Origin: Nemertoderma westbladi | Lineage: Eukaryota > Animalia > Xenacoelomorpha | Assembly: GCA_032718475.1 (NCBI GenBank) | Contig: JAUCBJ010009127.1 | Coordinates: 30,904-94,903, forward strand | Length of the DNA: 64,000 nucleotides | Reading direction: 5' to 3' | Shown here: piece after piece, positions 25,854 through 61,786 of the stretch | Position numbering within the stretch: position 1 is the first letter of the stretch | How the letters are laid out: each line of letters begins with the position of its first letter | Made by a program: the position numbers and the translations under genes | The notes under the pieces: generated by a model | Told to the model about the DNA's origin: nothing | The model's database searches: none | Seen by the model: only the letters and a program-made list of their open reading frames with translations

Positions 25854-25861
25854 CCGCTCCC
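25854..25861 (-). other. Short polypurine tract (GGGAGCGG) abutting the 3' LTR
   Basis: The minus strand reads ...TCTGGGAGCGG|TGTAAAAG, the expected position for the plus-strand primer. Confidence 0.7.
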
Positions 25862-25931: not shown

Positions 25932-28900
25932 TTAGTCTTTCTTGCGCGGACGGCGTTTACGCAGTTTTTTAAAGCTAGCAAGAGTCCTTTTCTCTTTGGG
26001 GCAAGCCACTTTACGAGGAGGGCTGTAGCTCCTAGGCGAAGGGTGCAATATAATTGCATCAGAAGGTGCAGGGTTACGATCGGTATACCCGCCGGTCGAA
26101 GTACCTGGTTGATTAATATCAACCTCAGTGGAGTAAGGTCTAACGGCCTTTAGAGCGCGTCTCAGGACAGCAGCTCCTACGGGTCCTTGACGGGTCGTCT
26201 GGACATTAGCGGTGGGTGGACCGTGAGTGGTGAGGAACTTTCTCGGTTTAATGGTTCTCTCCAGCTCGCGTTCTCGGGTTCGATATTCATATGGTCGCCG
26301 AGATATTTCCTGTAGTTCAGGATGCGAGTTCACAAAGATGTCGCCATACTCAGGATCTTGACGGATAAAATTGATCAGGTGATATGTGGTTATATCATTA
26401 GGGTTAACGTTTCTAAGGTATTTCCTGACAAACTTGGTGGAAATACACTCACCAACACGCTTCATTAACTCGTAACTTGGTACGCGTGTTTTCTGTTCAA
26501 TCGACGCGAATAGATAAGGATGGAACGCGTAAACTCCCTCGTAAGCTCGTCCAGGGTAATAGCGATGTCGGGATTCGCAGTGTAAATCGGCGTTCGCTTC
26601 CCAAGCTCGGATGTATCGCAGGGTGATCATCTCGTCTACGCTCTCTAAATCGCGATTAAAGGGACAATTGTAACTTTCATGTCCTTTAAGTTGGCAGTAG
26701 TGACATTGAGTCATAAATTGTGGGCAGACGGCAAATATATGAGAGTTATTAAGCCAGCAATAAGCACAATATATTTCCATCATCGGTTGTTCGAGGAAAT
26801 AGGAACAAGGTACGCTCGAGTCTAGAGGAGTGAAGTGGTCTCTCGATGCGCATAATCGACAACGTTTTCGAGAAACGTAGTTGGCGTGTCGATAATCGTA
26901 CGCTGTGAGACGCTGTGGACCTTGATACCACTCTATGACATAATCATTGTCACTGCTCCGGGAAGTTGTAGGCTGAATCGCTTCTGATTCCAAGCACACT
27001 GGTTCATCCTCCAGCTGTATAGACGAAGTGGGTGCGTCTGTCTCAGTAAGTGGATCCACTGTCTGTATTTCCACGACAGAATAACCTGTAGGTATTCGGG
27101 GTCTTTGTATAACAGATGAATGTGAGTTCTGTATACAAACGTCTTGAAACACGGCAAATCCAGCGCTACTCAGTTTCTCCGCAGCCGAGTCTCTCAGACT
27201 GAGTTTGGTCAGCGCGCGGTCCTTGAACTGACTATCGACGTTACGGAACGGAGTCAGAAAGCGCCGGAAACATTCGAAACGTATGAACTTATTGTGTTCG
27301 TCTAACTTGGCGAGTTTAGTTCCAAGTATTAACGGGTGAGCGCGTATGGTACGACTGCACACATCGGCTAGCCAACCGGCAAGTGCTGCGTTTTCAAAGA
27401 TCGTATATATAGCTAAGGAAGGGCGAAGTGGAACACTCATAAAGCTATATACTGCACCAGGCGCAGTTAATGGTCCGTCAAAATATAAACGGGAGTAATG
27501 ATCTCCATATACCTGCTGGTAATTGATAGGATTTCCAACTTTGAAATTCCATCCATATTCTTGAAGGGCAAGATGTCCGATGGATGTCCGTTGTACTTTA
27601 GTAATGTCGCTGGGTGTATTGGCATACATAGTGCGAAAGAAACCTCGGCCTTCGGCCCAAGGAGCAATCAGCTGAGTATCAACGAAAGGGTATGGAATGT
27701 TCTCCATATTCCGGAAGTCGTTTTGGAGGTCTCCATAAACAGCTGAGCCGATTTTTAGGATTCTTTCGTTAAACAACATTTCGAGCACGGGTTGGGGTAA
27801 CATTGATCCGTCGATACCCATGGCCGGTTTGCGCTCGGTGTCGGTGACGTAACGTTGCGCGAGCTCGAATTGTCCATGTCGAAGTTTCTTTTGTGTCTCC
27901 GTAAGGGTTTCAAAAGAATAATCGATCACGTCGGAACACGCTCGAGTGAATACGTGGGTAGAACCAGCGAGTCCTCGTATATGTATCATTCGCGTAGTTC
28001 CTAGTTCTCCCACCGGAACGCTACCTTCGTTGTCATAAGTAACAATGCCATACATCTCGATAACATTAAGAGTCTCGTTCCATTCTTTAGTGGCGTTTTC
28101 GAGAGCCATTCCCACTGGATGCCACAAAGTAGCGCATTCGCTAGCATTGGGTAAATCTCTATACTTTAAGCATTGTGTAGTATAGGTTTCCACATCTCCA
28201 TATCGTTTTATTCTTTCTTCCTCGAATAACACGTCAAGATTCCAGTGTACCAATCGAGTTTTAATGAATCCATCAAGATTGTACGGAGGTAATATTTCTT
28301 TCTCTATTCTGGAAATATTATACGGTTTTCGAAATGAGTTTAGTTTAACTAGCTGATCTAGATGTTTTTGTAGTTGTTCGAGTTCGACGAGGTCGAGAGG
28401 ATTGATCAATGGTAGAAACTTCAGACTATGCGTAGGATCTTCTGGTTTCACCATGTAATATTGCTTTAAATTGACGTAATAAGGATGATCCTTAATTCCA
28501 TAAAATGAGTCCGGCAAAGGTCTAGCGCGTATGTTAACATCGTGCGCCATGCGACGGACAAGATCCGCTCTATTGTCCGGAGGCTCAACAAGTACGCCAT
28601 CGACACGAGCAGCCTCGACGGGTGGACGTTGTAGCATGGGAGCGTCAGCAACGAGCTCTTGAGATCTGAGATCGGTGTTAACCGGTTGAGGCTGTACCGT
28701 AGCAAAGAGCTTGTCTTTAAAATGAGGAACCATCGAGGGGTGGAGAATCGGTTTGGAATAGAGATCCGTCACGAGAATTTGAGCTTCTGGTTGGGCTAAA
28801 GCTGCTTCTTCCCTCTCAGTCAGCTCTATATGTCTCTCCTCGAGCTGATTTTCCTCCGCTTGTTGTTGCAAGCGCTCGTCCAGGAATTCCTGTAAAGAGT

Positions 28901-30185
28901 AGGTTCGTCCACGTTCGATGTCCTCCTCTAGATTTTGTATTTCTCTATCGAACTGGGGTAAAGCTAGTTCTTTCACCGCTTGGACTTGTTGTTGCAATTT
29001 ACGTTTCTCCAAGCAATCGTAAGTTCCTTTTCCGATTTTCTGCCGAATAGCGTCCAATGCATTTCGTATCACGCTCTCTTTGACTTCTGTAACAGGTTGG
29101 ATCGGAGGAAGGCCAGGACGGTTGTAGGGGTTAAACGGTGATATTAGATGACCGCGTCCTAGTCCAGCAAGGTAAGGTTGGCGAATATCCAACGAACCCA
29201 CTACCGGAGTGCCACCAATCAACTGTTCAGGTAACACCAGATCTTTGAACAGTGAGTACAGTTCGGGAGGATCCGTAATACTATTAGGATCTAGAGTTTG
29301 AGGTATCACTTGGGAATGGGGAGGTCTGACCGAGTATTCCGGAACTCTGATCATGGGTTTATTCAATGATCGCTTAAGGCGCGCGACCGTAGGTGATACG
29401 TCGAAAAGGTTACGCTCGAAACTCCCATAAGTATATCGCGTAAAACTGTGTTTAGCGCAACGTCTCCGCGGATGTTTATGCCTTTCGATCTGCTGGTTAG
29501 GTCTAGGACATTCGTCACAGTAATACCAAAGACGCATGTCTTGAAGGGGAAACGCGGGTGATCGCTCTCCAGTTTTACAATATTCTTCCATCTGTTCGAA
29601 GCTATCTGGAACGACAGGGAGTGGTCGATCGGCGGTAAGATACATCATCGTAAAATAGAGCCGTTTGAGTTCCATTATAGGATCTGGATGTATACCTTGG
29701 GGATATCGAGTTTCGAGGTTTTGTTGACTGGCAACATTGAGATAGGTTTCTCTTAGAAATTCTAGATATTCGTTGAAGCCGCTACGTTTATCAGGTTCTT
29801 CAACGTCTTCTCTTTCGAGCTTATTTCGAATAGAGTTCTCGTGTTCTATTCTCGATTTATCGTTTCGACTCCGCTGGGTATGATATTTAAATAAAACCAT
29901 TTCCCTTTCGGTATCGACATCGTCGGTGTCGTGTAAATCAATAGGATGGCCGGTAGTTAAGAAGTCCATATACATACCATTACGATGCGTATAGCGAGCA
30001 GTGAATTTTCTATAGTCCAATTCACGCGTAAGTTGCTCCTGGGACATTGGCGGTTCGATATAACGACCATCGTCCTCCGTAGTAGTTGGATCAGCGTCGC
30101 CGCGTATCAAGCTATCGACAAACGCTTGTAAAGGTAGAGTATATCTCTCCCTGATACCAAGATCATCTTCTATTAATTCAGTCAT
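25932..30185 (-). CDS. Accessory ORF3 (1417 aa): N-terminal Cys/His cluster, coiled coil, DEDDy-like 3'-5' exonuclease domain, three C-terminal CCHC-like zinc knuckles, basic tail
   Basis: Uninterrupted 4.25-kb ORF between integrase and the 3' LTR. ExoI-like IVTYDNEG (~28026-28046), LPQPVLEMLFNERILKIGSAVYGD (ExoII, ~27729-27800), FVDTQLIA, SIGHLALQEYGWNFK and PLRPSLAIYTIFE (ExoIII-like, ~27390-27430). Knuckles CRLC..H..C, CAYC..H..C and CHYCQLKGHESYNC (~26660-26865). No signal peptide or transmembrane segment evident. Confidence 0.85.
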   Translation of the reverse strand: MTELIEDDLGIRERYTLPLQAFVDSLIRGDADPTTTEDDGRYIEPPMSQEQLTRELDYRKFTARYTHRNGMYMDFLTTGHPIDLHDTDDVDTEREMVLFKYHTQRSRNDKSRIEHENSIRNKLEREDVEEPDKRSGFNEYLEFLRETYLNVASQQNLETRYPQGIHPDPIMELKRLYFTMMYLTADRPLPVVPDSFEQMEEYCKTGERSPAFPLQDMRLWYYCDECPRPNQQIERHKHPRRRCAKHSFTRYTYGSFERNLFDVSPTVARLKRSLNKPMIRVPEYSVRPPHSQVIPQTLDPNSITDPPELYSLFKDLVLPEQLIGGTPVVGSLDIRQPYLAGLGRGHLISPFNPYNRPGLPPIQPVTEVKESVIRNALDAIRQKIGKGTYDCLEKRKLQQQVQAVKELALPQFDREIQNLEEDIERGRTYSLQEFLDERLQQQAEENQLEERHIELTEREEAALAQPEAQILVTDLYSKPILHPSMVPHFKDKLFATVQPQPVNTDLRSQELVADAPMLQRPPVEAARVDGVLVEPPDNRADLVRRMAHDVNIRARPLPDSFYGIKDHPYYVNLKQYYMVKPEDPTHSLKFLPLINPLDLVELEQLQKHLDQLVKLNSFRKPYNISRIEKEILPPYNLDGFIKTRLVHWNLDVLFEEERIKRYGDVETYTTQCLKYRDLPNASECATLWHPVGMALENATKEWNETLNVIEMYGIVTYDNEGSVPVGELGTTRMIHIRGLAGSTHVFTRACSDVIDYSFETLTETQKKLRHGQFELAQRYVTDTERKPAMGIDGSMLPQPVLEMLFNERILKIGSAVYGDLQNDFRNMENIPYPFVDTQLIAPWAEGRGFFRTMYANTPSDITKVQRTSIGHLALQEYGWNFKVGNPINYQQVYGDHYSRLYFDGPLTAPGAVYSFMSVPLRPSLAIYTIFENAALAGWLADVCSRTIRAHPLILGTKLAKLDEHNKFIRFECFRRFLTPFRNVDSQFKDRALTKLSLRDSAAEKLSSAGFAVFQDVCIQNSHSSVIQRPRIPTGYSVVEIQTVDPLTETDAPTSSIQLEDEPVCLESEAIQPTTSRSSDNDYVIEWYQGPQRLTAYDYRHANYVSRKRCRLCASRDHFTPLDSSVPCSYFLEQPMMEIYCAYCWLNNSHIFAVCPQFMTQCHYCQLKGHESYNCPFNRDLESVDEMITLRYIRAWEANADLHCESRHRYYPGRAYEGVYAFHPYLFASIEQKTRVPSYELMKRVGECISTKFVRKYLRNVNPNDITTYHLINFIRQDPEYGDIFVNSHPELQEISRRPYEYRTRERELERTIKPRKFLTTHGPPTANVQTTRQGPVGAAVLRRALKAVRPYSTEVDINQPGTSTGGYTDRNPAPSDAIILHPSPRSYSPPRKVACPKEKRTLASFKKLRKRRPRKKD

Positions 30186-31009
30186 ATCTGCTATACGAGT
30201 TCACCAATATTATAATGAGTTTATATATTGTTAGGCGAGCGGGCGTCGCTGCCTATTTCTCCCTTGCCCCCGGACAGTATGAGATTCTCAGCGCCGATGT
30301 ACCGCTGTCGCTATACTTTCGCCAACGACGTAGCCGTACAACGACAACGATAACCGGCACAAGTCACTCAACTGTCCGTCCCAAAGGCTTAGATGTACTT
30401 CAGGTTTTCTTTGGAGAGTTAGGTTACTTTTACGATTGCGACTAGCTACTGTAAACACACTTTAGCAGTAACATTCACCTATAAACTCACAAATACCACA
30501 CAACTGGTCACAACTACGCATTCGGGCCATTTGTCCGTTAGTCAATGCCTTCCAGAATGTCACTGTATTATCATGTATCCTTGGATACTAGTAGTGCGCT
30601 ATTTATTCCCTATGCTATTCAATGGGACAAGCTTTCTATTGTTCTTTTAACTCAATTCTAATTCTAGCGTGGTTGTTGCTATGGTGACATTATGCAAAGC
30701 TAGCGGTAGAATTAGGGTAATTCCAATGCGTACAGATCTGGGATGTTATTTAATAGTATTCTTTAATAGTCAATGTTCTGTTTTATACATGACTTTATGA
30801 ATTTTATCGGCTATTGACTATGTTTGGGAGACTTTCGCACACTCATATGCATAATAAGATAAATCTCCGCTCCCTTGATCTATTAATTAATGGAATTTTG
30901 GGAATGTTATAAATTACGTAAAAATGGCAATTTATTAAATTCATTAAAAGGCATGAATTTAAATTTATTCCCTGAAATTTTATTATTTGATAATTAAATG
31001 GACATATTT

Positions 31010-31835: not shown

Positions 31836-32924
31836 TTAAGTTGGAGAGTCCCTAGATGTCGGTTGGATTAGGGAAGTGGTCGTGGGAAGAGTTTCTTGCC
31901 TTCCATAGTTTCCGGAGAGCTCTCTGTCTCTTTCCAGTAAACATAAACGTCCCACTGGGCGATTGAGCTGTTGAGTCTCAAAGACTATCCCTGGTTTCTT
32001 AAAGTTACGCCGCATTACGACGAGCTCTACCGATCGCACCAAACCATCGCTCGAGATATGAGTCTCGATGATACGTCCTGTTTGCCATCGCTTACGTGGG
32101 AGATCGGGGTCCACAATAAGCACCATGTCTCCAGCGCTGACGTTTTCTTGCTGCGCAAACCACTTAGTTCGAAGTTGTAGAGTGGGCAGGTAATGTTTCT
32201 CGAAATGGTCAGCGAAACGACGGGATAGCAACTGCATAAGTTGCCAGGTTCGACGGCAGTACTCGTCTCCGTCTGTGATCTCCGATCGTGGGAGCATGGC
32301 TACGGGCTTCTTCAGTAGAAAGTGCGCGGGTGTTAGCGCTTCCAGGGAATCAGGATTTGAAGAAACTGGCATAAGCGGTCTTTCGTTGAGATAGGCGGCG
32401 ATTTCCTCCATTAACGTCCGCAATAGTTCGTCGGTGAGATAAGCGCGACAAGGTACAATAAAGTGGAACGCAGTCTTCACGCTCCTAATCAATCTCTCCC
32501 AACTTCCTCCCCACCAAGGGGCGTCGGCGGCGTTGAAGGTCCAGCTAGACGCTGTTATCTTTAGCTGATCGTCCACCTGTCTTTTGTTCCAGTCCTTTAC
32601 GTAAGCTTGAATTTCGTTGTTGGCGCCAATGAAGTTCGTTCCCTTATCCGATCTCATCGTGTTACTGGTTCCGAAACGAGCGATCTGTCGTCGTAAACTC
32701 AACACGAAGCTGTTGGTGGATAGATCGTTTACCATATCGAGATGGATAGCTCTACAAGTCATACAAACGAAGATGACACACCATCTCTTGACTATAGTCC
32801 GGGCACGATATACTTCAATAGGGCCAAATAAATCCACACCGGTATTAGTAAAGGGTGGTTCATAGAAGCTTACTCTTTCCCTAGGTAATTCTGCCTCTCG
32901 CTGTGTTAAAGGCCTACCTGAATG
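31836..32924 (-). CDS. pol segment 3: integrase DDE core and C-terminal domain
   Basis: LPRERV..PFTNTGVDLFGP, RAIHLD, SDKGTNF, APWWGGSWERLIRSVK, LNERPL, LTPAHFL and W..GRI....DGLVR. The frame extends upstream of the track ORF to the frameshift at ~32925. Confidence 0.93.
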   Translation of the reverse strand, partial: HSGRPLTQREAELPRERVSFYEPPFTNTGVDLFGPIEVYRARTIVKRWCVIFVCMTCRAIHLDMVNDLSTNSFVLSLRRQIARFGTSNTMRSDKGTNFIGANNEIQAYVKDWNKRQVDDQLKITASSWTFNAADAPWWGGSWERLIRSVKTAFHFIVPCRAYLTDELLRTLMEEIAAYLNERPLMPVSSNPDSLEALTPAHFLLKKPVAMLPRSEITDGDEYCRRTWQLMQLLSRRFADHFEKHYLPTLQLRTKWFAQQENVSAGDMVLIVDPDLPRKRWQTGRIIETHISSDGLVRSVELVVMRRNFKKPGIVFETQQLNRPVGRLCLLERDRELSGNYGRQETLPTTTSLIQPTSRDSPT

Positions 32925-34465
32925 CTTTCCTACAGGGTATGCAGTTCCTAAGAACTTGGTTCAGAGCCCTACGGGGTTTATAAAAATAGTAGCGAGTGCG
33001 AATTTCGCTCAGAACTCGTTCTCTACCAGCATGGTACAGTTTGCTATGAACATCGACAATTATCTTGATTTGTATGTCAAGATTTCTAATGAGGATGGGA
33101 AACTTAGTGTCAAAGGATAATGGGGCGTTGGTCAGCCTGCCTCCAACACGTATTAACCCATCTATCATGGTACGAGAGAAGCGATCCCTTAAGCGCATCT
33201 GTGGATTTCTTAACAACAGGAAATACTTATCGGAATCCTCATAGCATTGTAGGAGTCTCAGCATCTGTTTGTTGGTTTCATCATGCTCCTGGTAGCTGAT
33301 CTTCTCCTTTAGAAACCTGTCAGATACCTTGTATTGTGGAAGATCTTTAACAACATGGACTCGTGCAGATGTTGATGGAGCATCATCACTATGGGTCTTT
33401 GTCCCGGAGTAACGATGATGAAAACATCGTTTTAAATAGGTGACAGCTTTACAGAGCCGATTCCAGGAACTGTAGTGACGTATCGCTCTCTGCAAGAGAG
33501 GTGAGAGTCCTTGTGAGATATCTGGTATTCCAGATTTCCAATCCTTGTCACGGATTTCCAAGACTTCTTTAGTCGTGGCAGTGGGTTTCTGATCCAAAGC
33601 ATCATCTCCGGAAGTAAATAATACAGATAGATCAACCGCAGGTTTAAACAACTTCGATTTACTCGCTCGAGTTTTGGGTTTAACTTTCTCCGCTCCCTTG
33701 GCCTGTCTGATCTCTGCTGTTGTGAGATGGGGAGGCCATTCTTCTTCTTCTCTGTAGAGAAAGTCGGGTCCTCCTAACCATTCGGGAGTATTTACCAATT
33801 CCTTTGGAGTCGCTCCTCGGGAAGCGATGTCTGCTGGGTTAATCGTTCCGGGGCAATGTCTCCATTGGTCCATCGTCGTGCGACTAAGTATGATGGCTAC
33901 CCTGTTGGTAATGAAGACGCTGAACTGACAGACTTCATTGGTTATATACTCTAACACGAGTAAAGCGTCGGTCCAATAGACAGTTTTCTCTAATGTATAG
34001 TCAATCTGTTCGGTTACATTCCGGCCGATGGCTGTAGCGTATAGAGCCGCTTTTAACTCCGCTCGAGGAACTTTCAACTTGTTGTTGATTAATGCCTTAG
34101 AAGTAACCAAGGCGACTTTGATTCCATCCGGAGTTTCCACTCTTAGGTAGGCTACTATACCTATTCCCATATCGCTGGCGTCTCCAAACACATGGAGTTG
34201 ATAGGAATACGTAGGGAGAACATGACCAAAATATGAACGGGAAATTATAAAATCCTCGATAGCCGGCAGAGAATCTTCCCATTCCATCCACTTCTTCAAT
34301 AATTCTCCCTTAAGTGGATCGTCCCATGAGTGGTTTTCAAGCCACATTTGTTGTACCAAACTACGAGCAATCAATATAACTGGGCTAATAAATCCCAATG
34401 GATCGAAATAAGTGCTCAGTATACTTAAGCAAATCCGTTTTGTTCGAACTGGATTATCTCGCTGT
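32914..34465 (-). CDS. pol segment 2: Pao RNase H region and integrase HHCC zinc finger
   Basis: RTKRICLSILSTYFDPLGFISP, LHVFGDAS, VPRAELKAA, YWTDA, WRHCPGTINPADIASRG, W..GP.FL, DGLIRVGGRL and H...H...CIPC. Out of frame with its neighbours at both ends. Confidence 0.93.
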
Positions 34466-37400
34466 TTTAGCTGGGAAAAACAGGATATCTCGCTCTGTGT
34501 CCCATTTCAAGCCGAGTGTCTTGGTTTCTGGCAGATCATCTTTGATCAAATCTAGATCTTTCGCCCCTCGATCTTCCGCGGGGATCGACTCCAGAAACTC
34601 ACGGGAGTTGCTGGTGAATTTTGTTAATCGAAAACCACCTCTTTTTAAGCACTCTACCGTTCCTTTAGCGACCTCAATGGCTTCCTCAACTGATGGAAGG
34701 GACTTCAGATTGTCGTCCATGTATATGTCTCTCTTGATGTTGTCGATCACTTCCTTAGAGAAGGCCTCTCTGTTGTCCTCTGCAGTGGTACGCACTACCG
34801 AACAGGCGTTGGAAGGGCTTGAGATTATCCCAAAGGCCTGGATGGTCATCCAGTACTCCACCGGTTTCTGGTTGAGGTCTCCTTCGGGCCACCACAGAAA
34901 TCGTAGACTATCTCGATCCTTATCTAACACCTTGACTTGTAAGAACATGCCTTCTATATCGGAGGCGAAAGCAATCGAATATTGTCTCAATCTTAAAAGA
35001 ATTCCCAACAAAGATTGAAGCAAGTTGGGTCCGGGTAACAATTCAGAGTTAAGGGATTGACCCATGTAAAGGGCGGAGCCATCAAACACTACTCTCACTT
35101 CGTGTGGCTTACCGGGTTTAGGAACGTAATGGTGAGTTAAGTAATACGTTCTTTCATTCACAGGTGTTTCTTCCGGTACTCTCTCCGCGTATCCCTTACT
35201 AATAAATTTTTCCAGCTGTGTTTGATACATTGCTTTAGCTGAAGAATTAGCCGTAAGGCGTCGATGGAGTTGCGCGATTCTTTTTTCCGCCAAAGGTCTG
35301 TTATTGATGAACTTCGGTTCTTTCTTGCGGAAAGGTAGACCGACTTCATACCTACCTTGATCTTTGAGGAAACGTGTAGTTGTCTCTTGGATCTGCTTGG
35401 CCCTTTCCTCTTCCACCGACAAGGCTTTATCGTAGGAATTGGGCTCTACCGCCTCTTGCGTAAAGAATCGTACGGCATGTTCATCCCGAGTCTTGGCATT
35501 ATGACGCTCAATGACGTCATTTAACTCGTCGTTATAAGCTTCTCGTTCAGATGGATAGAGAAGTTGACATAAGTTCACTTGGTTCTGCCAAGCCTCGTTT
35601 TCCTTAAGGAGATCGATGGTATTCTCTTCATCAAAAAGCTGGTGAACGTCGTCATTATCTGAGGAGTATGGAGTTCCCTCAGTTAAGTTGTCTCCCTCAC
35701 TGGTATCATCTTCCCATTCACTCACCTGGCATACGCTCTCTGGCGGTAGTCTTTCTCTGAGTGTTCTACGGGAAGGACCAGTAAAGTACCAACCTACTCT
35801 AGTTCTTACCGCATAGGTCTGTAGTGGCTGCGGTTGAGCAGGCCGTTTCTCTAATGTCTCCAGCGCCTCATGCGCGTTTTGGCCGATGAGTATTTGCACT
35901 CCAGGATAATCAGTCTGGAATCGAGGTATGTTAAGATGTTGGATGCTCTCATCCTCGTCCCAATTATAAAGGTCTGCTTGAGTAGTAGCGAAGTTCTTTA
36001 TAGCTACCATTTTCACTGACCTTATGCTATGTTCTCCTAGTTCGTCTTGTGGGGTGGACAACGCGCCTACATAATAATCAGCTGTTATTGTAGATTTCCA
36101 AACTTGCATAATGCCGGACATGTTGAGCTTAGTTTGGAACTTGGGTTGTCCAGCAAATATATCTTCGGCTAGCTCTTTGTCGATGAATGTTCCTGTACTA
36201 CCGGAGTCAAGGAGGGCGTTCACTACATAACTCCTCTTAGGTCCGTGAACCCTTACTTGCACCACAGGAAACTCTCGGATCCCTACATTGGAAGATGGCT
36301 CTTTCCAAGATGGTTGTCGCTCAGAAGTAGTTAGAGTGAAGTCGTTGTCTGTATCCTTTTCATATGTGAGTGCTCGATACACTGCGGTATTTATCATGTA
36401 ACAGGATTCGTTTTCGTCGGAGAACTCGTCTGTATAGAATCCTTCCATCTCAGATTGATCAGTGTCGTTCACATCACTGAATTGGACATGTAGCTCGGAA
36501 TCACTTACCTGACTCGGACTATTTCGATCGAATTCAGCGTGCAACAAGATATGATGTTTCGCACCACACTTTGCACACCTTATGTCAGAGAAACAGGTTC
36601 GCCGTTGGTGTCCTTGTCTGAGGCAATTATAACATAACCGCTTATCCCACATGACTTCGCGTCTCTCCGTTAATGATTTCTTTAGAAATTCATCACACCT
36701 ATTCAAATGGTGGGTCCCGTCACACAGCGCACATTTCGGTTTGATGTTACTTACCTTATTCTGAGTCACATTGTGTACACTTGCCTTTTCTTCGGGCTTT
36801 CTCACCTGAATTCTCTTGGGAGACGTGGGAGGAGTTTTTCTTACCTGTTCTCTCCTGTCATTTGCTCGAGACTTGAATTTACTTACCTGATCTTTAGGCA
36901 TTTTATTGACATAATAAGATCTATCAGTGTCTTTCCCGCTATCTTCTCCTTGAGAAGTCTGGCTTTCGCCGTCGTCTGTATAACACACTGGTGTTACCTT
37001 TCTCCTAGAGACGGGTTTTTCACTTACCTTGTTTTCCGGTGTCTTCTCTCGGGACTGCTTGAGGAGTTGCAATTTCACTTCTCCATCCAAGAATGACATG
37101 AGATCAGCCATGGTAGGGTCTCGTCGTTGTTGTTCCATCATATATAGTACTTTCTTATCCCAGCGTGTGCCTACCCCACCTTTCGGTAAAGTAGAAGCCA
37201 CAGCTCCAATGACCATAGAACTTTGGTATTCATGAGACTTACCTAACCAATCTAATTGTCTACAGATCTCTTGAATCTCATCGGAAAACTCTATTATCCC
37301 ACTGCTGATGAACTTTCTGGGCGCTACTAATTTTGCATATAAATACTTAGCGATATTATTCCTATTACCATACCTGATGTTTAGTGTGTCCCAAACTTGT

Positions 37401-39976
37401 TTTAATCCGTCTGGATGTCCAATAAACTTTAACGCCATTAACTTGGGAGATCCTTCCAAGCACTCGATGAGGTATCTAAGTTTTTCTCCATTAGATAGTA
37501 CAGAGTTCTGTATGTTATCTTTGTAATATTCATTAAAAGGTAACCATTTCATCTCATCTCCATTGAACTTGACGATCTCTCCCACCTTTACCGCTTGCCG
37601 GGCTTCGGTTCTAGCCATTTGACGCGTAAAACTTTCTTGGGCCATCGTGTTATTTAATATCGAGTTATCGGTATATAAATTTCTCGGATTATGATCAGTT
37701 CTATAGGGAATGTCATTATCAACAGGTCTATAATTACCCTTAATAGGGTTCACTATAGGAGTTTCTACTTCGCTAGCAGTATATATGCGTGTAGGCTCCA
37801 CACCTTGCGCATGAGATACTTGAGACCTAACAGGTTGACACATTGTTACAGAGGGTGGCGGTATACCCTTTTGAGTATTTACTAATTTATCGCGTTCTAG
37901 CGCGATACTTTGCTGCACTTCTTGCAACTCTAGCCTACTTTCCCTTACTGTGCCCTTGAATTGCTGGACAGTCTCCTGCATCTGCCCGAGCAGGATATCC
38001 ATCCCCCGCCGTCTCTCGTCCACCCATTCGACCGCCGAAGCGGGAGTCGCCAACGTTGTTGCGGGCGGACGAGGGACAACGGGCGACAAATTATGAATAA
38101 TTCGCTCGGGGTCCAGGACCGGAACTGTCCCCTGGGCAGTTCTACGGGGCACAGGTAGCTTAGTGCTATGCAGAGGGAATTTAGAGGTGGTCTCAGGGAG
38201 CACAGGTGCGTCTATCACCGAAGGGGTGATTTCAAGAATAGGCCTAATTATTTCAGGCTCATCTACTATCGTAGGGAGTCTTTCCATTTTAATTGTTTGG
38301 TCTGTGGGCTCTGTACTACCTAAGTTGGTGTTATTGAGTTGCCTTCTAACAGCTGGAGGCAAATCAGGCAATTTCTGACGGTGGAATGTTCTTTTACGTC
38401 TGCTTAGACGAGATCTATTTCCTTTGCCTTCAGTATCGGTGGTATCGCCTTCCTCAGATGATGTATATCCCTGTCTTTTGGGAGTAGATCGATTCATCAT
38501 CTGCATATTACTAGCTGTTAACTGTTTATTTATGCAGTCTTGATTCTCCTGAATGTTTTCCAATTCTAATTGGGTGGTTTCTTCAGTCGCTCTCCGTTCG
38601 GCTTCTGCCACTGCCTCTGCGGCCTTTCTTTCAGCCTCGGCCGCCTTTGCTTCTGCCGCTGCCGCTGCCGCTGCTGCTGCTGCTTTTGCCTCTGCCACTG
38701 CCGCTGCCGCTGCCGCTTTTGCCTCTGCCGCTTTTGCCTCTGCTGCTGCCTCTGCCGCTGCCGCTTTTCTTTCTGCTTCTGCAGCTACCACTGCTGCTTT
38801 CTTTCTGTCTTCTATACGTTTTTTCTTTACTTGTTCTTCTTGGGCTCGTGTGATGCGGAGTTGTTCATGAAATTCAGCCTGGTTCGCAGCCCCCATTTCC
38901 ACATCGATGGCATCCAACACAAGCTTGGTTCCTTCACTATTAGGGCTAAGTCCCTCTAACCTTCTCCTCAACTCGTCATCACCTAAAAAACGTTGATAGT
39001 CTGACAGATAGATATCAATGGCATCCCTCTTATGCGGTTTCTCTGCCGTCGCTTCACTTTCCACCTGGGAAAAAGTAGCGTCTGTTGATTCTCCATGGGT
39101 TGATCGCTCCTCTAGCTGAGCTTTCCACTGAGCTGTTCCTTGAACCTGGAGATTCACCCTTTGAAACCATGTCTTTACGGCGACTTGCAACGACGTGTCT
39201 TGTCTTCGTTTAGAAGCCTCCTCAAAGGCCGATAAGATTAGCCTGATTCGTAGAATTCTTTCTCTAACTTGATAAAGCAGCAATCCCTGCTCTTGAGGTC
39301 CTTGAGGTTGATGAAACAGTTGTTCTTTTAATCGCTCTATAGAGCTGAAGAATCCCTGTGCGTATCCGGCTGCGGACCTCTTCCACACAGCTGGATCGAT
39401 GGTTTCCTTGGCTACTCCCATCCGGTGTATGTCTTCCCAGGCAGCTTCTGATAAATCAAACGGGAGTCCGGGTCCGGGGAAGTTCCATTGCGACTCGACA
39501 ATAGACTTCAGTTCTTCACTCGTGTATCCCGCATAACTATCTCTAGTTGAACGCTGGCTTCTCGCCCAATCGATCTGGTGTTCTTCCACAGCGATCAATA
39601 ACCTAGTGAGTACGGCTGCAGGAAGGATGAGAAGGGGATCTGAATAAGCCTCATCCATCATCCTTTCTCCGCGTTCGGGTGTCAGTTCTACCGTATCTTC
39701 ACTACTGGAGCTATCGGGCCGTTGAGAAGTAAGTTCTTGGCTCGCGGGTTGTTGCTGTTCCGCTGCTTCTTGGTCCCGTTTGACCTGAGCTCGAGTGCCT
39801 ATGATAGACCTACGATGTTGAACCAGCCTAGGTTCTTTTATCACTACCGGAGGGATGACTTTCCTCACAGTGGGAGGTGAACTGAACTTACGACTAGACG
39901 GTTCTACGCCTCTATCTGAGTCGCAGATAGTTACATCTAATAAACTGTCTGACAGGTTCTGCTTAGTATCAGACAT
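34454..39976 (-). CDS. gag-protease-reverse transcriptase polyprotein (1840-aa segment)
   Basis: Long N-terminal extension with an Ala/Glu/Lys coiled coil; KFNGD..KW Gag capsid-like motif; knuckles CALCDGTHHLNRC, CYNCLRQGHQRRTC and CAKCGAKHHILLH; protease LLDSGS; RT motifs RVVFDGS, GPNL, DIEGMFLQV, FG..SSP, YMDD and LGLKWD. Confidence 0.96.
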   Translation of the reverse strand: MSDTKQNLSDSLLDVTICDSDRGVEPSSRKFSSPPTVRKVIPPVVIKEPRLVQHRRSIIGTRAQVKRDQEAAEQQQPASQELTSQRPDSSSSEDTVELTPERGERMMDEAYSDPLLILPAAVLTRLLIAVEEHQIDWARSQRSTRDSYAGYTSEELKSIVESQWNFPGPGLPFDLSEAAWEDIHRMGVAKETIDPAVWKRSAAGYAQGFFSSIERLKEQLFHQPQGPQEQGLLLYQVRERILRIRLILSAFEEASKRRQDTSLQVAVKTWFQRVNLQVQGTAQWKAQLEERSTHGESTDATFSQVESEATAEKPHKRDAIDIYLSDYQRFLGDDELRRRLEGLSPNSEGTKLVLDAIDVEMGAANQAEFHEQLRITRAQEEQVKKKRIEDRKKAAVVAAEAERKAAAAEAAAEAKAAEAKAAAAAAVAEAKAAAAAAAAAAEAKAAEAERKAAEAVAEAERRATEETTQLELENIQENQDCINKQLTASNMQMMNRSTPKRQGYTSSEEGDTTDTEGKGNRSRLSRRKRTFHRQKLPDLPPAVRRQLNNTNLGSTEPTDQTIKMERLPTIVDEPEIIRPILEITPSVIDAPVLPETTSKFPLHSTKLPVPRRTAQGTVPVLDPERIIHNLSPVVPRPPATTLATPASAVEWVDERRRGMDILLGQMQETVQQFKGTVRESRLELQEVQQSIALERDKLVNTQKGIPPPSVTMCQPVRSQVSHAQGVEPTRIYTASEVETPIVNPIKGNYRPVDNDIPYRTDHNPRNLYTDNSILNNTMAQESFTRQMARTEARQAVKVGEIVKFNGDEMKWLPFNEYYKDNIQNSVLSNGEKLRYLIECLEGSPKLMALKFIGHPDGLKQVWDTLNIRYGNRNNIAKYLYAKLVAPRKFISSGIIEFSDEIQEICRQLDWLGKSHEYQSSMVIGAVASTLPKGGVGTRWDKKVLYMMEQQRRDPTMADLMSFLDGEVKLQLLKQSREKTPENKVSEKPVSRRKVTPVCYTDDGESQTSQGEDSGKDTDRSYYVNKMPKDQVSKFKSRANDRREQVRKTPPTSPKRIQVRKPEEKASVHNVTQNKVSNIKPKCALCDGTHHLNRCDEFLKKSLTERREVMWDKRLCYNCLRQGHQRRTCFSDIRCAKCGAKHHILLHAEFDRNSPSQVSDSELHVQFSDVNDTDQSEMEGFYTDEFSDENESCYMINTAVYRALTYEKDTDNDFTLTTSERQPSWKEPSSNVGIREFPVVQVRVHGPKRSYVVNALLDSGSTGTFIDKELAEDIFAGQPKFQTKLNMSGIMQVWKSTITADYYVGALSTPQDELGEHSIRSVKMVAIKNFATTQADLYNWDEDESIQHLNIPRFQTDYPGVQILIGQNAHEALETLEKRPAQPQPLQTYAVRTRVGWYFTGPSRRTLRERLPPESVCQVSEWEDDTSEGDNLTEGTPYSSDNDDVHQLFDEENTIDLLKENEAWQNQVNLCQLLYPSEREAYNDELNDVIERHNAKTRDEHAVRFFTQEAVEPNSYDKALSVEEERAKQIQETTTRFLKDQGRYEVGLPFRKKEPKFINNRPLAEKRIAQLHRRLTANSSAKAMYQTQLEKFISKGYAERVPEETPVNERTYYLTHHYVPKPGKPHEVRVVFDGSALYMGQSLNSELLPGPNLLQSLLGILLRLRQYSIAFASDIEGMFLQVKVLDKDRDSLRFLWWPEGDLNQKPVEYWMTIQAFGIISSPSNACSVVRTTAEDNREAFSKEVIDNIKRDIYMDDNLKSLPSVEEAIEVAKGTVECLKRGGFRLTKFTSNSREFLESIPAEDRGAKDLDLIKDDLPETKTLGLKWDTERDILFFPAKTAR

Positions 39977-41344
39977 GTTTATGTTTACAGTGGAATGTCT
40001 ACTGCTATATTACAGTCTGAGCACGTCTAGTAACTCAGTATTAACTGCTAGCCTAGTAATTAATTACCGGTACTGCTACTCAGTGTAGCGTGATATATAT
40101 AATATATTATAATACCGGTATGCTTATAGTATATATAACTATTATTACAAACCAGGTTTATCGCAGAATACCGGTATAATTTTAGCACAAATATATATAA
40201 ATATATAATAGGCCTATCGGAATACCGGTATACAGCTTACAGTTTTGTAGTATATATAAGTATAATTCTGGACTAGAATTAATTATAAGGTACCGGTATA
40301 ATTTCAGCCTAAATTTATAGAAATAGAGATAATAGGCCTATCGTAAATACCGGTATATCAATTATTTTAAATAATTGAATTTCTGAATTTTAGGTTACTT
40401 GGTTACTTTACTTACTTTATTACCATTTTTTGAGCAGTAGACCAACTGATATGGAGACCTAATGGTTGTATGGTAGGCCTACTATTTATAAATCGTTAGA
40501 TTTGATTTATAATATATTTATACCCGTTTTAATGGGTTTAGTCAATGTTTGAAATAAATGTTATTATTTCTGGGGAGTAATCACTACACAAAGCGGTGCG
40601 CTTTCAGTGAAGTGTTACTCATAGGACACTAAAACAAATAATACTAATTTACCTAAGTTACTTAATACTACAAATTACGTACAATTCGGGTGAGATTACA
40701 ATCTCTAAATAAACACAAAATTTACAAAAACACAAAATACGAAATTTCAGGGTAATTTTACAAGAAGTCTACAAACCAGCCTAACAAAGGGTTAGAAATC
40801 TGATTATTACAACGGACAGGGTACTGCGGTATTTGAAAATAATACGTAGTAGTAAATACACTGCGTTGTCCAGATAGGAAAATACCACCGCCTGACGACC
40901 TATAGCCGTTTCGCTACAGGTACTACGTTATGTATCACGGAGTGTTCCTACCTAGAAGTTAATAGAGCTAATCGAACGTGCCTATCAACCACTTTACAAC
41001 ACAAATATAATGCCTACTAATTACTTTCGGAAAGCACTGTACACTAAACCCTAAATTAGGTACGAGTACTTGTATAACATATAATCTGTAGTTAAATATA
41101 CTTGAACAGCTAAAAGAACCACGGCATCTGCTGGAGTGACCGATGCACAAAATCACCAGTCTTTACCTACGCCAAGCAGCCCGTGTAGTACCGGGGTTAA
41201 TTTAACTATAGCAGTATGTATAACAAACACAATTACTGTAGGAACAAACTTGGGGAATGAATGTTGCGAATAATCGCATAAACTCTGAATAATAAATATT
41301 ACGCTACGCGTACAAACTACTCAAACAAAATGCAGACCGAACAC

Positions 41345-41862
41345 TGACAGACTACTATCAAGCCTAAACAAACTACGGTATATGCAGACTCCGAAATAAT
41401 TAGGTAGTATGCGTTCTAACCCAGTAGTACGACTTATTCTTTAGTTGGGGGTTTACCTTACAGCATTCGCTGCCCCTACTTCCTAACCGTTCTTTATCGG
41501 ACAAGTGATCTACACACGCTGCAATCCGTTCAGACCTAATAACAGCCAGACAAATATCCAGCCTACAAATTATCTCAATAAAATTATACACTACCCGTAC
41601 AGACTTACACAAACAAAGTACAGACTAAACGATGGCAGACTACTCTCAAGCCTAAATAAACTACAGGACATGCAGACTCCGAAATAATTAGGTAGTATGC
41701 GTTCTAACCCAGTAGTACGACTTATTCTTTAGTTGGGGGTTTACCTTACAGCATTCGCTGCCCCTACTTCCTAACCGTTCTTTATCGGACAGATGATCTA
41801 CACACACTGCAATCCGTTCAGACTTAACAACAATCAGACAACAGCTCAGCCTACAAATTGTC
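41345..41862. repeat. Direct duplication (~230 bp, period 288 bp) in the retrotransposon 5' leader
   Basis: ATGCAGACTCCGAAATAATTAGGTAGTATGCGTTCTAACCC...TTTATCGGACA is identical at 41382 and 41670. Confidence 0.93.
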
Positions 41863-42037
41863 TGTACAATCTGATCAGGCTTACACGCCTTCTGTTCAAT
41901 ACTGGCCTACAAATAAATAAAACTTGACAGAAATAAGTAAACCATATAAAGGAATAAGGGTGATCAATCCCTAATCCCTTAAACAGCCTACCGGTATGCA
42001 ACAATCAAATCGAATAATACTAGTGTACTTATACGGA

Positions 42038-42160
42038 AGTACCGGTTAGGACAGTTAGGCCTACGGACCTACAGAAGTACCGGTTCTGGCAGTTGGGCCT
42101 ACTGACCTACGGCAGTACCGGTTCTGGCGGTTGGGCCTACTGACCTACTGAAGTACCGTT
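42038..42160. repeat. 38-bp tandem repeat (3+ copies) near the primer-binding position
   Basis: AGTACCGGTT(CT/AG)G.C.GTT.GGCCTAC.GACCTAC units begin at 42038, 42076 and 42114, with a partial copy at 42152. Confidence 0.9.
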
Positions 42161-42216
42161 CAGGTTTACCGGTTGACCGGTACTTTCAACTTTATTGCTT
42201 ACTGCAATAAAGAAGC

Positions 42217-42228
42217 TATATCCGTTAT
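42217..42228 (-). promoter_or_regulatory. Non-canonical primer-binding site (ATAACGGATATA), complementary to an internal LTR 12-mer
   Basis: Directly follows the CA end of the 5' LTR on the minus strand and has no TGG. Exact reverse complement of minus-strand LTR sequence at 42979-42990 (and 25426-25437). Confidence 0.65.
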
Positions 42229-43406
42229 TGTTCGCGCTTTTAGACCTTTGGCAGTTTAACCCGCCAAATCAGGATGTCTTCTAGATAATAAATCACCTTT
42301 AGTCTATGACAAGTATTTAATTCACTACACTAGTCGAAACCAATCTGTGCGCGATCATTCACCCGCTGGATATACCCGGGAGATTGGGTTCGACGGCTTA
42401 ATTTTTATTGCTATGTAAGCCTAATGTATTATTCGACTGACAGTATTATATAATCTCTGACAATATTATTCACCTTCGGGGAATATTAACAGTTCCTTTA
42501 GGACGTGGCGCTCTATCTATATAGACAGAGTTATGACTTAAACTACTCACAACGATATGGCTTAGTTATAATTCACATATATGGCGCATTCTTTAGGAAA
42601 TGCTTCGTTATCAGTATCACTCATACACGATGCTGCACAATACTGCACACTGATCTGCCGATCTTCACTGATTTTAGTTATATATAAAAGGAACACGGAC
42701 CGACTCATGTAGGGTCTATCAAATAACATTAGATTCACTTCAAACCACTTTAACATAAGTCACAATCGTTATATGTAACCTTTCTCTCTTACCTTCGGTA
42801 TATCAAGAATAATGGGTTTCTGGGTTATTTATCGTTATTCCAAATATAATAATTCATCAACCATATTATGAAGAACTGACAGTAAATAGCAGTATAACAA
42901 TATAAAAGTATGCACAGTAATTCAGTGTGCGTTAAGTTCATTAGTTTGATATTAAGTGTTGTGTTGTGATAAATGCAGATAACGGATATATGCCCTTTAT
43001 AATTAAGCCTACTAGTGTTAGACTAAAACAGAAAAGCACAAAATATTTACAAGCCGTTCTCTCCTGGCTTAGGAAAGAAAGACCAACAACACTGAAAACT
43101 GATAAGAATAACCTTATTTACAAAGGCTTCCACCCAACACAGAGAAAGAGCATAAAGATAGGAAAATTCAGTTCAGTAGATCTGTGATAGGTCGAAATCA
43201 AAATCAACTCAAATCCTATAGGCAGATACTTTCCCAAGCTGGTTGGACAATTAAACGTAGCCCAGATCCCTTCGCACAGCGAATCAGCCAATCAGCCGGT
43301 AGCTTGCGCTATTCGAGTTATAGATCCCTTTCTAGAGTATTCTAGCGACTGGGGGGGAACTGGTTAGCAAGGCAAACGAATCAGTTATCCCACAAAAGCT
43401 TTTACA
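42229..43406 (-). repeat. 5' LTR (1178 bp)
   Basis: Copy of 24676-25853. On the minus strand there is a TATAAA at ~42996-43001 and an AATAAA at ~42404-42409. Confidence 0.98.
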
Positions 43407-46400
43407 CTTCATCTTCCACTCAGTTGTGGTTGATTCACGCACCCTTGCAATCTTCATCTTCCACTCAGTTGTGGTTCATTCACGCACCCTTGCAATCTTC
43501 ATCTTCCACTCAGTTGTGGTTCATTCACGCAACTTGCACTTTTCATCTTCCACTCAGTTGTGGTTCATTCTCGCACCCTGCAGTCTTCATCTTCCACTCA
43601 GTTGTGGTTCATTCCCGCACCCTTGCACTCTTCATCTTCCGCTCAGTTGTGGTTCATTCACGCACCCTGCAGTCTTCATCTTCCACTCAGTTGTGGTTCA
43701 TTCACGCACCCTTGCAATCTTCATCTTCCACTCAGTTGTGGTTCATTCACGCTCCCTTGCACTCTTCATCTTCCACTCAGTTGTGGTTCATTCTCGCTCC
43801 CTTGCACTCTTCATCTTCCACTCAGTTGTGGTTCATTCACGCACCCTTGCAATCTTCATCTTCCACTCAGTTGTGGTTCATTCACGCTCCCTTGCAATCT
43901 TCATCTTCCACTCAGTTGTGGTTCATTCACGCAACTTGCACTCTTCATCTTCCACTCAGTTGTGGTTCATTCTCGCACCCTTGCACTCTTCATCTTCCAC
44001 TCAGTTGTGGTTCATTCACGCAACTTGCACTTTTCATCTTCCACTCAGTTGTGGTTCATTCACGCAACTTGTACTCTTCATCTTCCACTCAGTTGTGGTT
44101 CATTCTCGCACCCTTGCAATCTTCATCTTCCACTCAGTTGTGGTTGATTCACGCACCCCTGCACTCTTCATCTTCCACTCAGTTGTGGTTGATTCACGCA
44201 CCCTTGCAATCTTCATCTTCCACTCAGTTGTGGTTCATTCTCGCACCCTGCAGTCTTCATCTTCCACTCAGTTGTGGTTCATTCCCGCACCCTTGCACTC
44301 TTCATCTTCCGCTCAGTTGTGGTTCATTCACGCACCCTGCAGTCTTCATCTTCCACTCAGTTGTGGTTCATTCACGCACCCTTGCAATCTTCATCTTCCA
44401 CTCAGTTGTGGTTCATTCCCGCACCCTTGTACTCTTTATCTTCCACTCAGTTGTGGTTCATTCTCGCACCCTTGCACTCTTCATCTTCCGCTCAGTTGTG
44501 GTTCATTCACGCACCCTGCAGTCTTCATCTTCCACTCAGTTGTGGTTCATTCCCGCACCCTTGTACTCTTTATCTTCCACTCAGTTGTGGTTCATTCTCG
44601 CACCCTTGCACTCTTCATCTTCCACTCAGTTGTGGTTCATTCCCGCACCCTTGTACTCTTTATCTTCCACTCAGTTGTGGTTCATTCTCGCACCCTTGCA
44701 CTCTTCATCTTCCGCTCAGTTGTGGTTCATTCACGCACCCTGCAGTCTTCATCTTCCACTCAGTTGTGGTTCATTCACGCACCCTTGCAATCTTCATCTT
44801 CCACTCAGTTGTGGTTCATTCACGCAACTTGCACTTTTCATCTTCCACTCAGTTGTGGTTCATTCACGCACCCTTGCAATCTTCATCTTCCACTCAGTTG
44901 TGGTTCATTCACGCAACTTGCACTTTTCATCTTCCACTCAGTTGTGGTTCATTCTCGCACCCTGCAGTCTTCATCTTCCACTCAGTTGTGGTTCATTCCC
45001 GCACCCTTGCACTCTTCATCTTCCGCTCAGTTGTGGTTCATTCACGCACCCTGCAGTCTTCATCTTCCACTCAGTTGTGGTTCATTCACGCTCCCTTGCA
45101 ATCTTCATCTTCCACTCAGTTGTGGTTCATTCACGCACCCTTGCAATCTTCATCTTCCACTCAGTTGTGGTTCATTCCCGCAACCTTGTACTCTTCATCT
45201 TCCGCTCAGTTGTGGTTCATTCACGCACCCTGCAGTCTTCATCTTCCACTCAGTTGTGGTTCATTCACGCTCCCTTGCACTCTTCATCTTCCGCTCAGTT
45301 GTGGTTCATTCACGCACCCTTGCAGTCTTCATCTTCCACTCAGTTGTGGTTCATTCCCGCACCCTGCAGTCTTCATCTTCCACTCAGTTGTGGTTCATTC
45401 CCGCACCCTGCAGTCTTCATCTTCCACTCAGTTGTGGTTCATTCCCGCACCCTGCAGTCTTCATCTTCCACTCAGTTGTGGTTCATTATCGCTCCCTTGC
45501 ACTCTTCATCTTCCGCTCAGTTGTGGTTCATTCACGCACCCTGCAGTCTTCATCTTCCACTCAGTTGTGGTTCATTCACGCACCCTGCAGTCTTCATCTT
45601 CCACTCAGTTGTGGTTCATTCACGCACCCTTGCAATCTTCATCTTCCACTCAGTTGTGGTTCATTCACGCTCCCTTGCACTCTTCATCTTCCACTCAGTT
45701 GTGGTTCATTCTCGCTCCCTTGCACTCTTCATCTTCCGCTCAGTTGTGGTTCATTCACGCACCCTTGCAGTCTTCATCTTCCACTCAGTTGTGGTTCATT
45801 CCCGCACCCTGCAGTCTTCATCTTCCACTCAGTTGTGGTTCATTCTCGCTCCCTTGCACTCTTCATCTTCCGCTCAGTTGTGGTTCATTCACGCACCCTT
45901 GCACTCTTCATCTTCCACTCAGTTGTGGTTCATTCCCACACCCTGCAGTCTTCATCTTCCACTCAGTTGTGGTTCATTCTCGCTCCCTTGCACTCTTCAT
46001 CTTCCGCTCAGTTGTGGTTCATTCACGCACCCTGCAGTCTTCATCTTCCACTCAGTTGTGGTTCATTCTCGCTCCCTTGCACTCTTCATCTTCCGCTCAG
46101 TTGTGGTTCATTCACGCACCCTGCAGTCTTCATCTTCCACTCAGTTGTGGTTCATTCACGCACCTTTGCAATCTTCATCTTCCACTCAGTTGTGGTTCAT
46201 TCTCGCTCCCTTGCACTCTTCATCTTCCGCTCAGTTGTGGTTCATTCACGCACCCTGCAGTCTTCATCTTCCACTCAGTTGTGGTTCATTCCCGCACCCT
46301 TGCACTCTTCATCTTCCACTCAGTTGTGGTTCATTCTCGCTCCCTTGCACTCTTCATCTTCCACTCAGTTGTGGTTCATTCTCGCTCCCTTGCACTCTTC

Positions 46401-61606: not shown

Positions 61607-61786
61607 GGGACGGAGAAGAGGAACCACGGGGATTCTGTCATTATGCGTTGCTTTCAGTTAGTATACTTATAATCATTGTGACTCTGCCTATCGCCATATT
61701 CTTCTGTCTACGGATCGTGCAAGAATACGAGAGGGCGGTTATATTTCGGTTGGGGAAACTCGTTTCCAAAGGTGCCAGAGGTCCAG
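61607..61786 (+). CDS. Internal coding exon of a stomatin/band 7 (SPFH, mec-2-like) gene
   Basis: TTTCAG| acceptor and CCAG|GTTAGT donor, 180 nt, phase 1-1. Peptide GFCHYALLSVSILIIIVTLPIAIFFCLRIVQEYERAVIFRLGKLVSKGARGPG matches the stomatin hairpin plus QEYERAVIFRLG signature. Confidence 0.93.

Follow-up and report, generated by a model that had tools for sequence, protein, structure and literature searches.

A primer-binding site complementary to the element's own LTR suggests self-derived priming in an 18.7-kb BEL/Pao retrotransposon of Nemertoderma westbladi

The window, a 64,000-nucleotide stretch of contig JAUCBJ010009127.1 of Nemertoderma westbladi, harbors one LTR retrotransposon, located on the minus strand from 43406 to 24676 (18,731 bp). 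The element is inserted within approximately 36 kb of a 45-bp satellite (window positions 1 to 24675 and 43407 to about 55045), in which the long plus-strand open reading frames are repeat artefacts. An exon of a host stomatin/band-7 gene is found on the plus strand at 61607 to 61787, followed in the intron by a minisatellite of approximately 27 bp (61790 to 63125). The structural features of the element are the following:

43407–43411 and 24671–24675, minus strand: target-site duplication of 5 bp (TGAAG), inside the 45-bp satellite
42229–43406, minus strand: 5' LTR, 1178 bp, TG...CA, three mismatches to the 3' LTR
34454–40009, minus strand: gag-protease-RT frame with DUF1759, zinc knuckles, DSGS and YMDD, 1851 amino acids from stop to stop
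32914–34506, minus strand: second frame, RNase H region (Pfam Peptidase_A17) and integrase zinc finger
31836–32960, minus strand: third frame, integrase core and DUF5641
25932–30200, minus strand: intact extra ORF of 1422 amino acids with Cys/His motifs, between integrase and 3' LTR
25854–25861, minus strand: polypurine tract (PPT), the purine-rich tract preceding the 3' LTR
24676–25853, minus strand: 3' LTR, 1178 bp

Since the two 1178-bp LTRs differ at only 3 positions, the insertion is young. The domain order protease-RT-RNase H-integrase identifies the element as BEL/Pao, a placement that rests on its protein domains. DUF1759, Peptidase_A17, Integrase_H2C2 and DUF5641 were detected above the Pfam cut-off; the protease (E 0.001) and RVT_1 (E 0.006) matched below that strength, with the DSGS and YMDD motifs present. 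In the window copy, pol is spread over three frames, which change near 34.5 kb and 32.9 kb. In a tree computed without named BEL/Pao reference elements (from lineages such as Sinbad, Suzu or Pao), the element is found on a long branch with a support of 0.19 and is not assigned to a named lineage. The LTR size falls into the range of 0.2 to 1.2 kb given for BEL/Pao elements, and the TG...CA ends, target-site duplication and PPT are all present. Membership of the Tf1/sushi group (Ty3/gypsy chromoviruses) was considered and is excluded by the Pao domains and by the result of the Pfam search of the element, in which no chromodomain was matched.

The element resembles the Belpaoviridae in its LTRs, PPT, gag-pol order, Pao Pfam domains and animal host; in contrast to them, it has a length of 18.7 kb instead of 4.2 to 10 kb (ICTV 2021, PMC8742986), lacks a tRNA primer-binding site (PBS) and encodes an extra 1422-amino-acid protein of no known family. 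The latter has Cys/His clusters near residues 1114 to 1200 and yielded nothing in Pfam, in the PDB or in a homologue search with residues 900 to 1300. It lacks a clear transmembrane segment and does not appear to be an envelope protein. The N-terminal region of Gag is unusually long, DUF1759 beginning only at residue 815, and includes a low-complexity part rich in Ala, Glu and Lys (38601 to 38800). The 2.2-kb leader (40010 to 42228) holds two copies of a 288-bp unit (41284 to 41863), 3.3 copies of a 38-bp unit (42032 to 42158) and several strong predicted splice sites. The features relevant for priming are located at its beginning and within the LTRs:

42217–42228, minus strand: PBS, offset 0 after the LTR, without TGG, complement of the LTR 12-mer
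42979–42990, minus strand: 12-mer of the 5' LTR (LTR positions 417 to 428), candidate primer, exact complement of the PBS
25426–25437, minus strand: 3' LTR copy of the 12-mer (element position 17970)
42190–42212, minus strand: leader hairpin of 9 bp just 3' of the PBS, containing a predicted splice donor at 42202

A first-pass annotation of this DNA had reported a perfect 12-nt complementarity between PBS and LTR, positioned for extension into U5 and not accompanied by a TGG close to the LTR. All of these observations were confirmed. The first 12 nt past the 5' LTR (42228 to 42217) are the exact reverse complement of LTR positions 417 to 428 (42990 to 42979), with base 13 unpaired. The base that follows the CA of the LTR is paired with the 3'-terminal base of the 12-mer, which is the orientation required for extension into U5. 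The absence of TGG, the partner of a tRNA CCA end, extends to the first 200 nt after the 5' LTR; the 18-nt PBS for the 3' end of tRNA-Arg or tRNA-Gly, as described for the family by the ICTV, was thus not found. The complement was held by 4 of 20,000 dinucleotide shuffles of the LTR at offset 0, and by 7 of 20,000 at offsets 0 to 5. The best duplex of the PBS on the sense strand is formed with the 12-mer in its conserved island (see below), at -21.7 kcal/mol compared to -17.6 kcal/mol elsewhere (3729 windows).

A chance match, or a local inverted duplication of no function, is very improbable as an explanation. Of the 16,364 internal 12-mers, only the PBS and an AT-rich one at offset 2087 find a complement in the LTR, and this second match together with the AT-rich sequence speaks for chance; the shuffles at the relevant position, the family conservation that stops at the 12-mer and the recurrence of the self-match in relatives speak against it. 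The match between PBS and 12-mer is real, and it is likely to have a function. The duplex can be extended upstream by approximately 10 nt with G-U pairs and a bulge (-22.4 kcal/mol), and this extension was set aside as evidence because the same leader bases form the local 9-bp hairpin. A U5-leader helix of 11 to 12 bp (LTR positions 970 to 981 with the leader at about +208) was within the chance range.

Priming from the element's own sequence is described for other LTR retrotransposons. Tf1 and Tf2 of Schizosaccharomyces pombe, Tj1, the Tf1/sushi elements and Tcn1 are self-primed without a tRNA PBS and carry, next to the 5' LTR, a PBS complementary to 11 to 12 nt of their own LTR (PMC7175516, PMC4600332, bioRxiv 10.1101/2022.12.06.519325). 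For Tf1, the primer is described there as the first 11 nt of the mRNA, held in a fold of three duplexes (PMC7175516). For the plant TAR lineage of Ty1/copia (Houba, Osr-1), self-priming is predicted from at least 10 nt of the LTR that are complementary to a sequence 0 to 5 bp past the 5' LTR (PMC6317226). With 12 nt at offset 0, the window element passes this sequence test; TAR is a plant copia lineage, and its self-priming is likewise a prediction from sequence. Tf1 belongs to Ty3/gypsy and thus to a different superfamily than the window element. The two are alike in that the PBS adjoins the 5' LTR and matches the element's own LTR, and the window element likely also uses an element RNA as primer.

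Since the PBS matches the element's own LTR over 12 nt and TGG is lacking, a self-derived primer is likely; that minus-strand DNA synthesis is primed by RNA of the element itself, regardless of the geometry, is given a probability of roughly 80%. Priming by a host RNA, either a tRNA half or another small RNA, with the LTR match being secondary, is improbable. It would agree with the priming by tRNA-Arg or tRNA-Gly given for the family (PMC8742986), one register of the PBS fits, by geometry alone, a tRNA 5' half ending at nucleotides 33 to 35 (Y32, U33), and half-tRNA priming is known in copia elements. A mature CCA end is not compatible with the 200 nt devoid of TGG, no T-loop or D-loop motif is found in the PBS complement, and the self-match here and in 11 of 12 relatives with differing PBSs would be left unexplained. 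No tRNA genes were found in the window and none in the 40 relative loci scanned out of 102. Cer7 of Caenorhabditis elegans, also a BEL/Pao element, reportedly supplies its primer itself, in the form of a tRNA-like sequence located outside its LTR. In contrast, no tRNA-like gene or primer was identified in the window element, where Rfam gave only three sub-threshold matches.

The relatives of the element were collected with an integrase alignment search, which gave 80 metagenome and 22 genome-bin loci (102 in total) with RT sequences 35 to 48% identical; no relative was found in viral contigs. In 15 loci both LTR copies end in CA and have different flanks, and 7 further repeat pairs lack the CA end. 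Three of the 15 were dropped, namely a duplicate (L042, of L043), a 76-bp repeat that is not an LTR (L059) and a locus for which the LTR start was not found (L064) and which gave no match in the 180 nt covered. Among the remaining 12 relatives with fixed LTR ends, 11 pair the PBS with their own LTR, the letters differing between relatives. In ten of them, all from aquatic-invertebrate contigs (L001, L043, L046, L055, L068, L075, L078, L083, L088 and L100), the PBS complement of 11 to 15 nt spans a predicted LTR intron junction, nine times with a GTAAG donor. One of these (L100) has a TGG at offset 1, yet shows an 11-nt junction match. The eleventh, L033, has a contiguous complement of 10 nt. 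The exception, L095, has a TGG site and no self-match; the length observed for it was reached by 91 of 100 PBS shuffles, compared to 0 of 100 in each of the 11 other relatives and in the window element. When LTRs and PBSs of different relatives were combined, 3 of 156 mismatched pairs reached 11 nt, two of which are the sister pair L046/L055. In the window element and the 11 relatives, the self-match begins 0 to 3 nt past the CA of the LTR. Among 30 further loci without a fixed LTR end, only 8 reached at least 11 nt; the reverse complements did so in 1 of 30 cases and shuffles in 1 of 150. Seven further BEL/Pao loci (L008, L027, L031, L044, L057, L058 and L066) have an LTR intron with a predicted junction that is complementary to the PBS as well. 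In these 17 junction loci, the last exon is usually accompanied by a nearby polyadenylation signal.

The PBS self-match is widespread among the relatives and did not originate once in this element only. The trait of the relatives need not be homologous to that of the window element, since the RT sequences are only 35 to 48% identical and the window element is found on a long branch. The ten junction relatives resemble it in having a PBS without tRNA match that is complementary to their own LTR at offset 0 to 3; they differ in that the complement exists only across the splice junction, 44 to 216 nt from the LTR end, whereas it is contiguous and 750 nt from the LTR end in the window element. A splice-junction primer in the window LTR was tried and rejected, the best junction match among 557 donor-acceptor pairs being 6 nt long. 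As the tRNA PBS is also missing in most relatives, the ICTV description of BEL/Pao elements by a tRNA PBS is incomplete.

Conservation within the family of the window element was assessed from seven listed public sequencing runs, six of which contain the stretch or part of it, in each case as contigs and with none recorded as RNA; four of these were aligned (X1, X3, X4 and X5). The summed contig depth exceeds 1 million over parts of the LTR, which is not a copy number and points to a very large family. Conservation is high at the LTR start, low from 43370 to 43030, high from 43028 to 42976, very low from 42978 to 42930 and high again from approximately 42897 to the LTR end. The short conserved block in the middle is listed here with the landmarks of the LTR:

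42976–43028, minus strand: island of approximately 50 nt conserved across subfamilies (contig depth and loose ends)
43092 (end), minus strand: second predicted splice acceptor, LTR position 315 (splice-site score)
43023–43024, minus strand: predicted splice acceptor AG, LTR position 384 (splice-site score)
42996–43001, minus strand: TATAAA, putative TATA box, 11 nt before the 12-mer (start to start)
42874–42879, minus strand: initiator-like TCAGTT, alternative candidate start site, close to where the LTR's long conserved 3' block begins
42786–42792, minus strand: predicted splice donor, LTR position 615, 3' of the 12-mer
42404–42409, minus strand: AATAAA, candidate polyadenylation signal by motif, LTR position 998

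The island runs from a T-rich, acceptor-like TTTTAG through TATAAA to the 3' end of the 12-mer. The contig depth of X1 amounts to approximately 404,000 at 42991 to 42994, 104,000 at 42979 to 42982, 4,900 at 42971 to 42974 and approximately 2,000 beyond. Among the loose ends listed, those on the side of the 12-mer start at 42980, 42978, 42977 and 42973; on the other side, all four runs have them at 43028, each time with T-rich sequence on the minus strand. The drop in depth together with the loose ends indicates that the block shared by the subfamilies reaches as far as the 12-mer's end, with divergence setting in no more than a few bases from there. The 12-mer itself is not invariant, as seen from the depth steps within it (318,000, 199,000 and 104,000) and from two LTR variants in X3 with changes inside the 12-mer (a 2-nt deletion and a substitution), which have no known PBS partner. 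The conserved island can also be read as a promoter alone. The LTR island pattern gave no match in metagenome contigs.

Compensatory changes, which the first-pass annotation had named as a check, were found in part. The sister families L046 and L055 differ by a compensatory change from A-U to G-C. In the family of the window element, two PBS positions commonly vary, the first base (42228) and the fifth (42224); X1 and X3 show each change in about half of their depth, X4 in a single contig. The change at 42228 was found in 46 contigs of X1, 23 of X3, one of X4 and none of X5, the latter not covering 42224. The partner changes predicted from these PBS variants were written down before the second alignment of the family contigs. 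The matching change at 42979 was present in loose ends of three contigs in X1 and one in X4, and the X4 depths are consistent, the change making up 16.6 of 22.3 at the PBS and 15 of 23.5 in the LTR. As it concerns one position, is unphased and has a 1-in-3 chance per loose end, this covariation is weak. The very high copy number of the family and its two PBS haplotypes make the primer question directly testable.

The position of the 12-mer relative to the RNA ends determines how a self-derived primer could be formed. A TATAAA only 6 to 11 nt upstream of 42990, and none at -30, had been pointed out before, and both were confirmed (43001 to 42996). The TATAAA motif, whose last base is 6 nt from the 12-mer, precedes the A of GCATTT (42974) by 27 nt, a distance that fits a TATA box and its transcription start. 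The conserved TATAAA at this distance predicts a start near 42974, approximately 4 nt after the 12-mer. The alternative TCAGTT, compared to the initiator consensus quoted in PMC3601003, is located 100 nt beyond the start predicted from TATAAA. Transcription probably starts after the 12-mer, near 42974 or 42877, and both starts would place the 12-mer in U3. In tentative agreement with an internal or U3 position, a 12 to 13-nt complement in L086 (1563 to 2050) abuts a TATA box on its upstream side, the LTR end in this locus being defined by the match itself. The best predicted acceptors of the window LTR (315 and 384), which are among the top-scoring of the 1331 AG sites of the element, lie upstream of the 12-mer and the best donor (615) downstream; no strong acceptor is predicted between this donor and AATAAA. 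The splice-site matrices were built from the introns of the relatives, with 9 to 10 examples only. An AATAAA or ATTAAA is found 9 to 105 nt past the acceptor in nine of the ten spliced relatives.

A strictly Tf1-like mode, in which the transcript begins at 42990 or right beside it, its 12 leading nucleotides pair in cis with the PBS and RNase H cleaves them off behind base 12, was implied by the self-priming proposal of the first-pass annotation. Of this proposal, the self-derived primer stands, being supported by the family conservation and by 11 of 12 relatives, while the Tf1 geometry with a start at 42990 does not and is unlikely. The length of 12 nt compared to 11 nt and the register and orientation are as in Tf1 (PMC7175516), and an RNA starting at LTR position 417 gave a mean pairing probability of 0.96 with up to 200 nt of leader. 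This probability dropped to 0.0 when the leader was 260 or 400 nt long, and pairing was also lost with a start at position 307. Overall, cis pairing of 12-mer and PBS was predicted in 5 of 15 folds, where folds of 900 to 1300 nt are unreliable; in folds lacking it, the PBS remains mostly unpaired. In the one fold that was resolved helix by helix (260 nt of leader), the primer-PBS duplex was missing, so that a three-duplex 'pretzel' of the Tf1 type was not predicted there. Further points against the Tf1-like mode are that the 12-mer is located 11 nt after TATAAA and not at the predicted start, that the island begins acceptor-like, and that the strong-stop DNA would need to be 750 nt long. In addition, the primer straddles a predicted splice junction in ten relatives and would there not be a simple unspliced 5' end.

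An internal primer, or one from a second RNA, fits the window element better than a Tf1-like RNA end, because of the spacing between TATAAA and GCATTT, the arrangement of acceptors upstream and donor downstream of the 12-mer, and the distance of 750 nt to the LTR end. It is rather probable, with less confidence than self-derived priming as such, that the primer is taken from the element's own RNA by cleavage right after the 12-mer and is internal to the transcript instead of comprising its capped first bases. An RNA of the element containing LTR sequence would anneal to the PBS, would be cut after the 12-mer, possibly by RNase H in analogy to Tf1 (PMC7175516), and the RT would extend the cut primer into U5. 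A 12-mer in U3, which may be the case, would still be compatible with a self-derived primer, since transcripts include U3 in their 3' part.

With regard to the source of this internal primer, a second RNA or the 3' LTR copy is a possible geometry, favoured at less than even odds, and an internal site in a long 5' R acting in cis appears rather less likely. If the core promoter starts transcription after the 12-mer, near 42974 or 42877, the 12-mer would be at the end of U3 and would be transcribed only from the 3' LTR copy, which any full-length or subgenomic RNA contains close to its 3' end. A second RNA would then be needed, because cutting the primer out of the U3 of the genomic RNA would destroy that RNA as a template. 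The 12-mer could be delivered by a co-packaged RNA, e.g. one without PBS that is spliced from donor 615 to acceptor 384 of the 3' LTR. If true, a second RNA would explain why the relatives keep the LTR intron while using its junction.

More specifically, and still somewhat doubtful, the BEL/Pao primer might be carried on a separate element-encoded RNA, an LTR-only spliced transcript that is co-packaged, cut and primes in trans. Here, the donor in R would be joined to the acceptor in U3 of the 3' LTR, skipping PBS, gag and pol; in the relatives, the RNA would be a short, spliced and polyadenylated LTR mini-transcript with the exon junction as primer. Splicing of the last intron promotes polyadenylation at the next signal. 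Were this the case, the LTR would double as the gene of the primer, and the amount of primer relative to genome would be governed by host splicing.

The pairing might instead be structural, serving circularisation, dimerisation or packaging of the RNA or helping strand transfer, with priming relying on something else. A 12-mer in U3 would join the two ends of the genomic RNA, and complementarity by itself does not show cleavage. In the window element as in 11 relatives, the match begins 0 to 3 nt after the CA, its 3' end pointing toward U5, which is the position of a primer, and no alternative primer site is visible; a purely structural role thus has a small probability, about as low as that of a host RNA primer.

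In the literature searched, which left most subscription papers outside its coverage, no report of self-priming in BEL/Pao was found. PBS, primer binding and tRNA are unmentioned in the main texts of PMC554778 (Sinbad) and PMC3118150 (a BEL/Pao survey), and the ICTV report of 2021 calls BEL/Pao replication poorly understood (PMC8742986). If the self-derived primer is true, BEL/Pao would join Tf1/sushi and plant TAR as a third case of LTR elements with self-priming, and the trait would apparently be common in BEL/Pao elements of aquatic invertebrates. It would differ from Tf1 in geometry, the primer being internal, junction-spanning in the relatives and possibly located in U3 here, and it would explain the failure of tRNA-based PBS finders on such elements.

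The genome-bin loci comprise 22 prokaryote genome records (L081 to L102) with contigs encoding animal BEL/Pao integrases, which are most likely host contamination. The relative with the TGG site, L095, is a whole element within a 1.4-Mb Wolbachia record.
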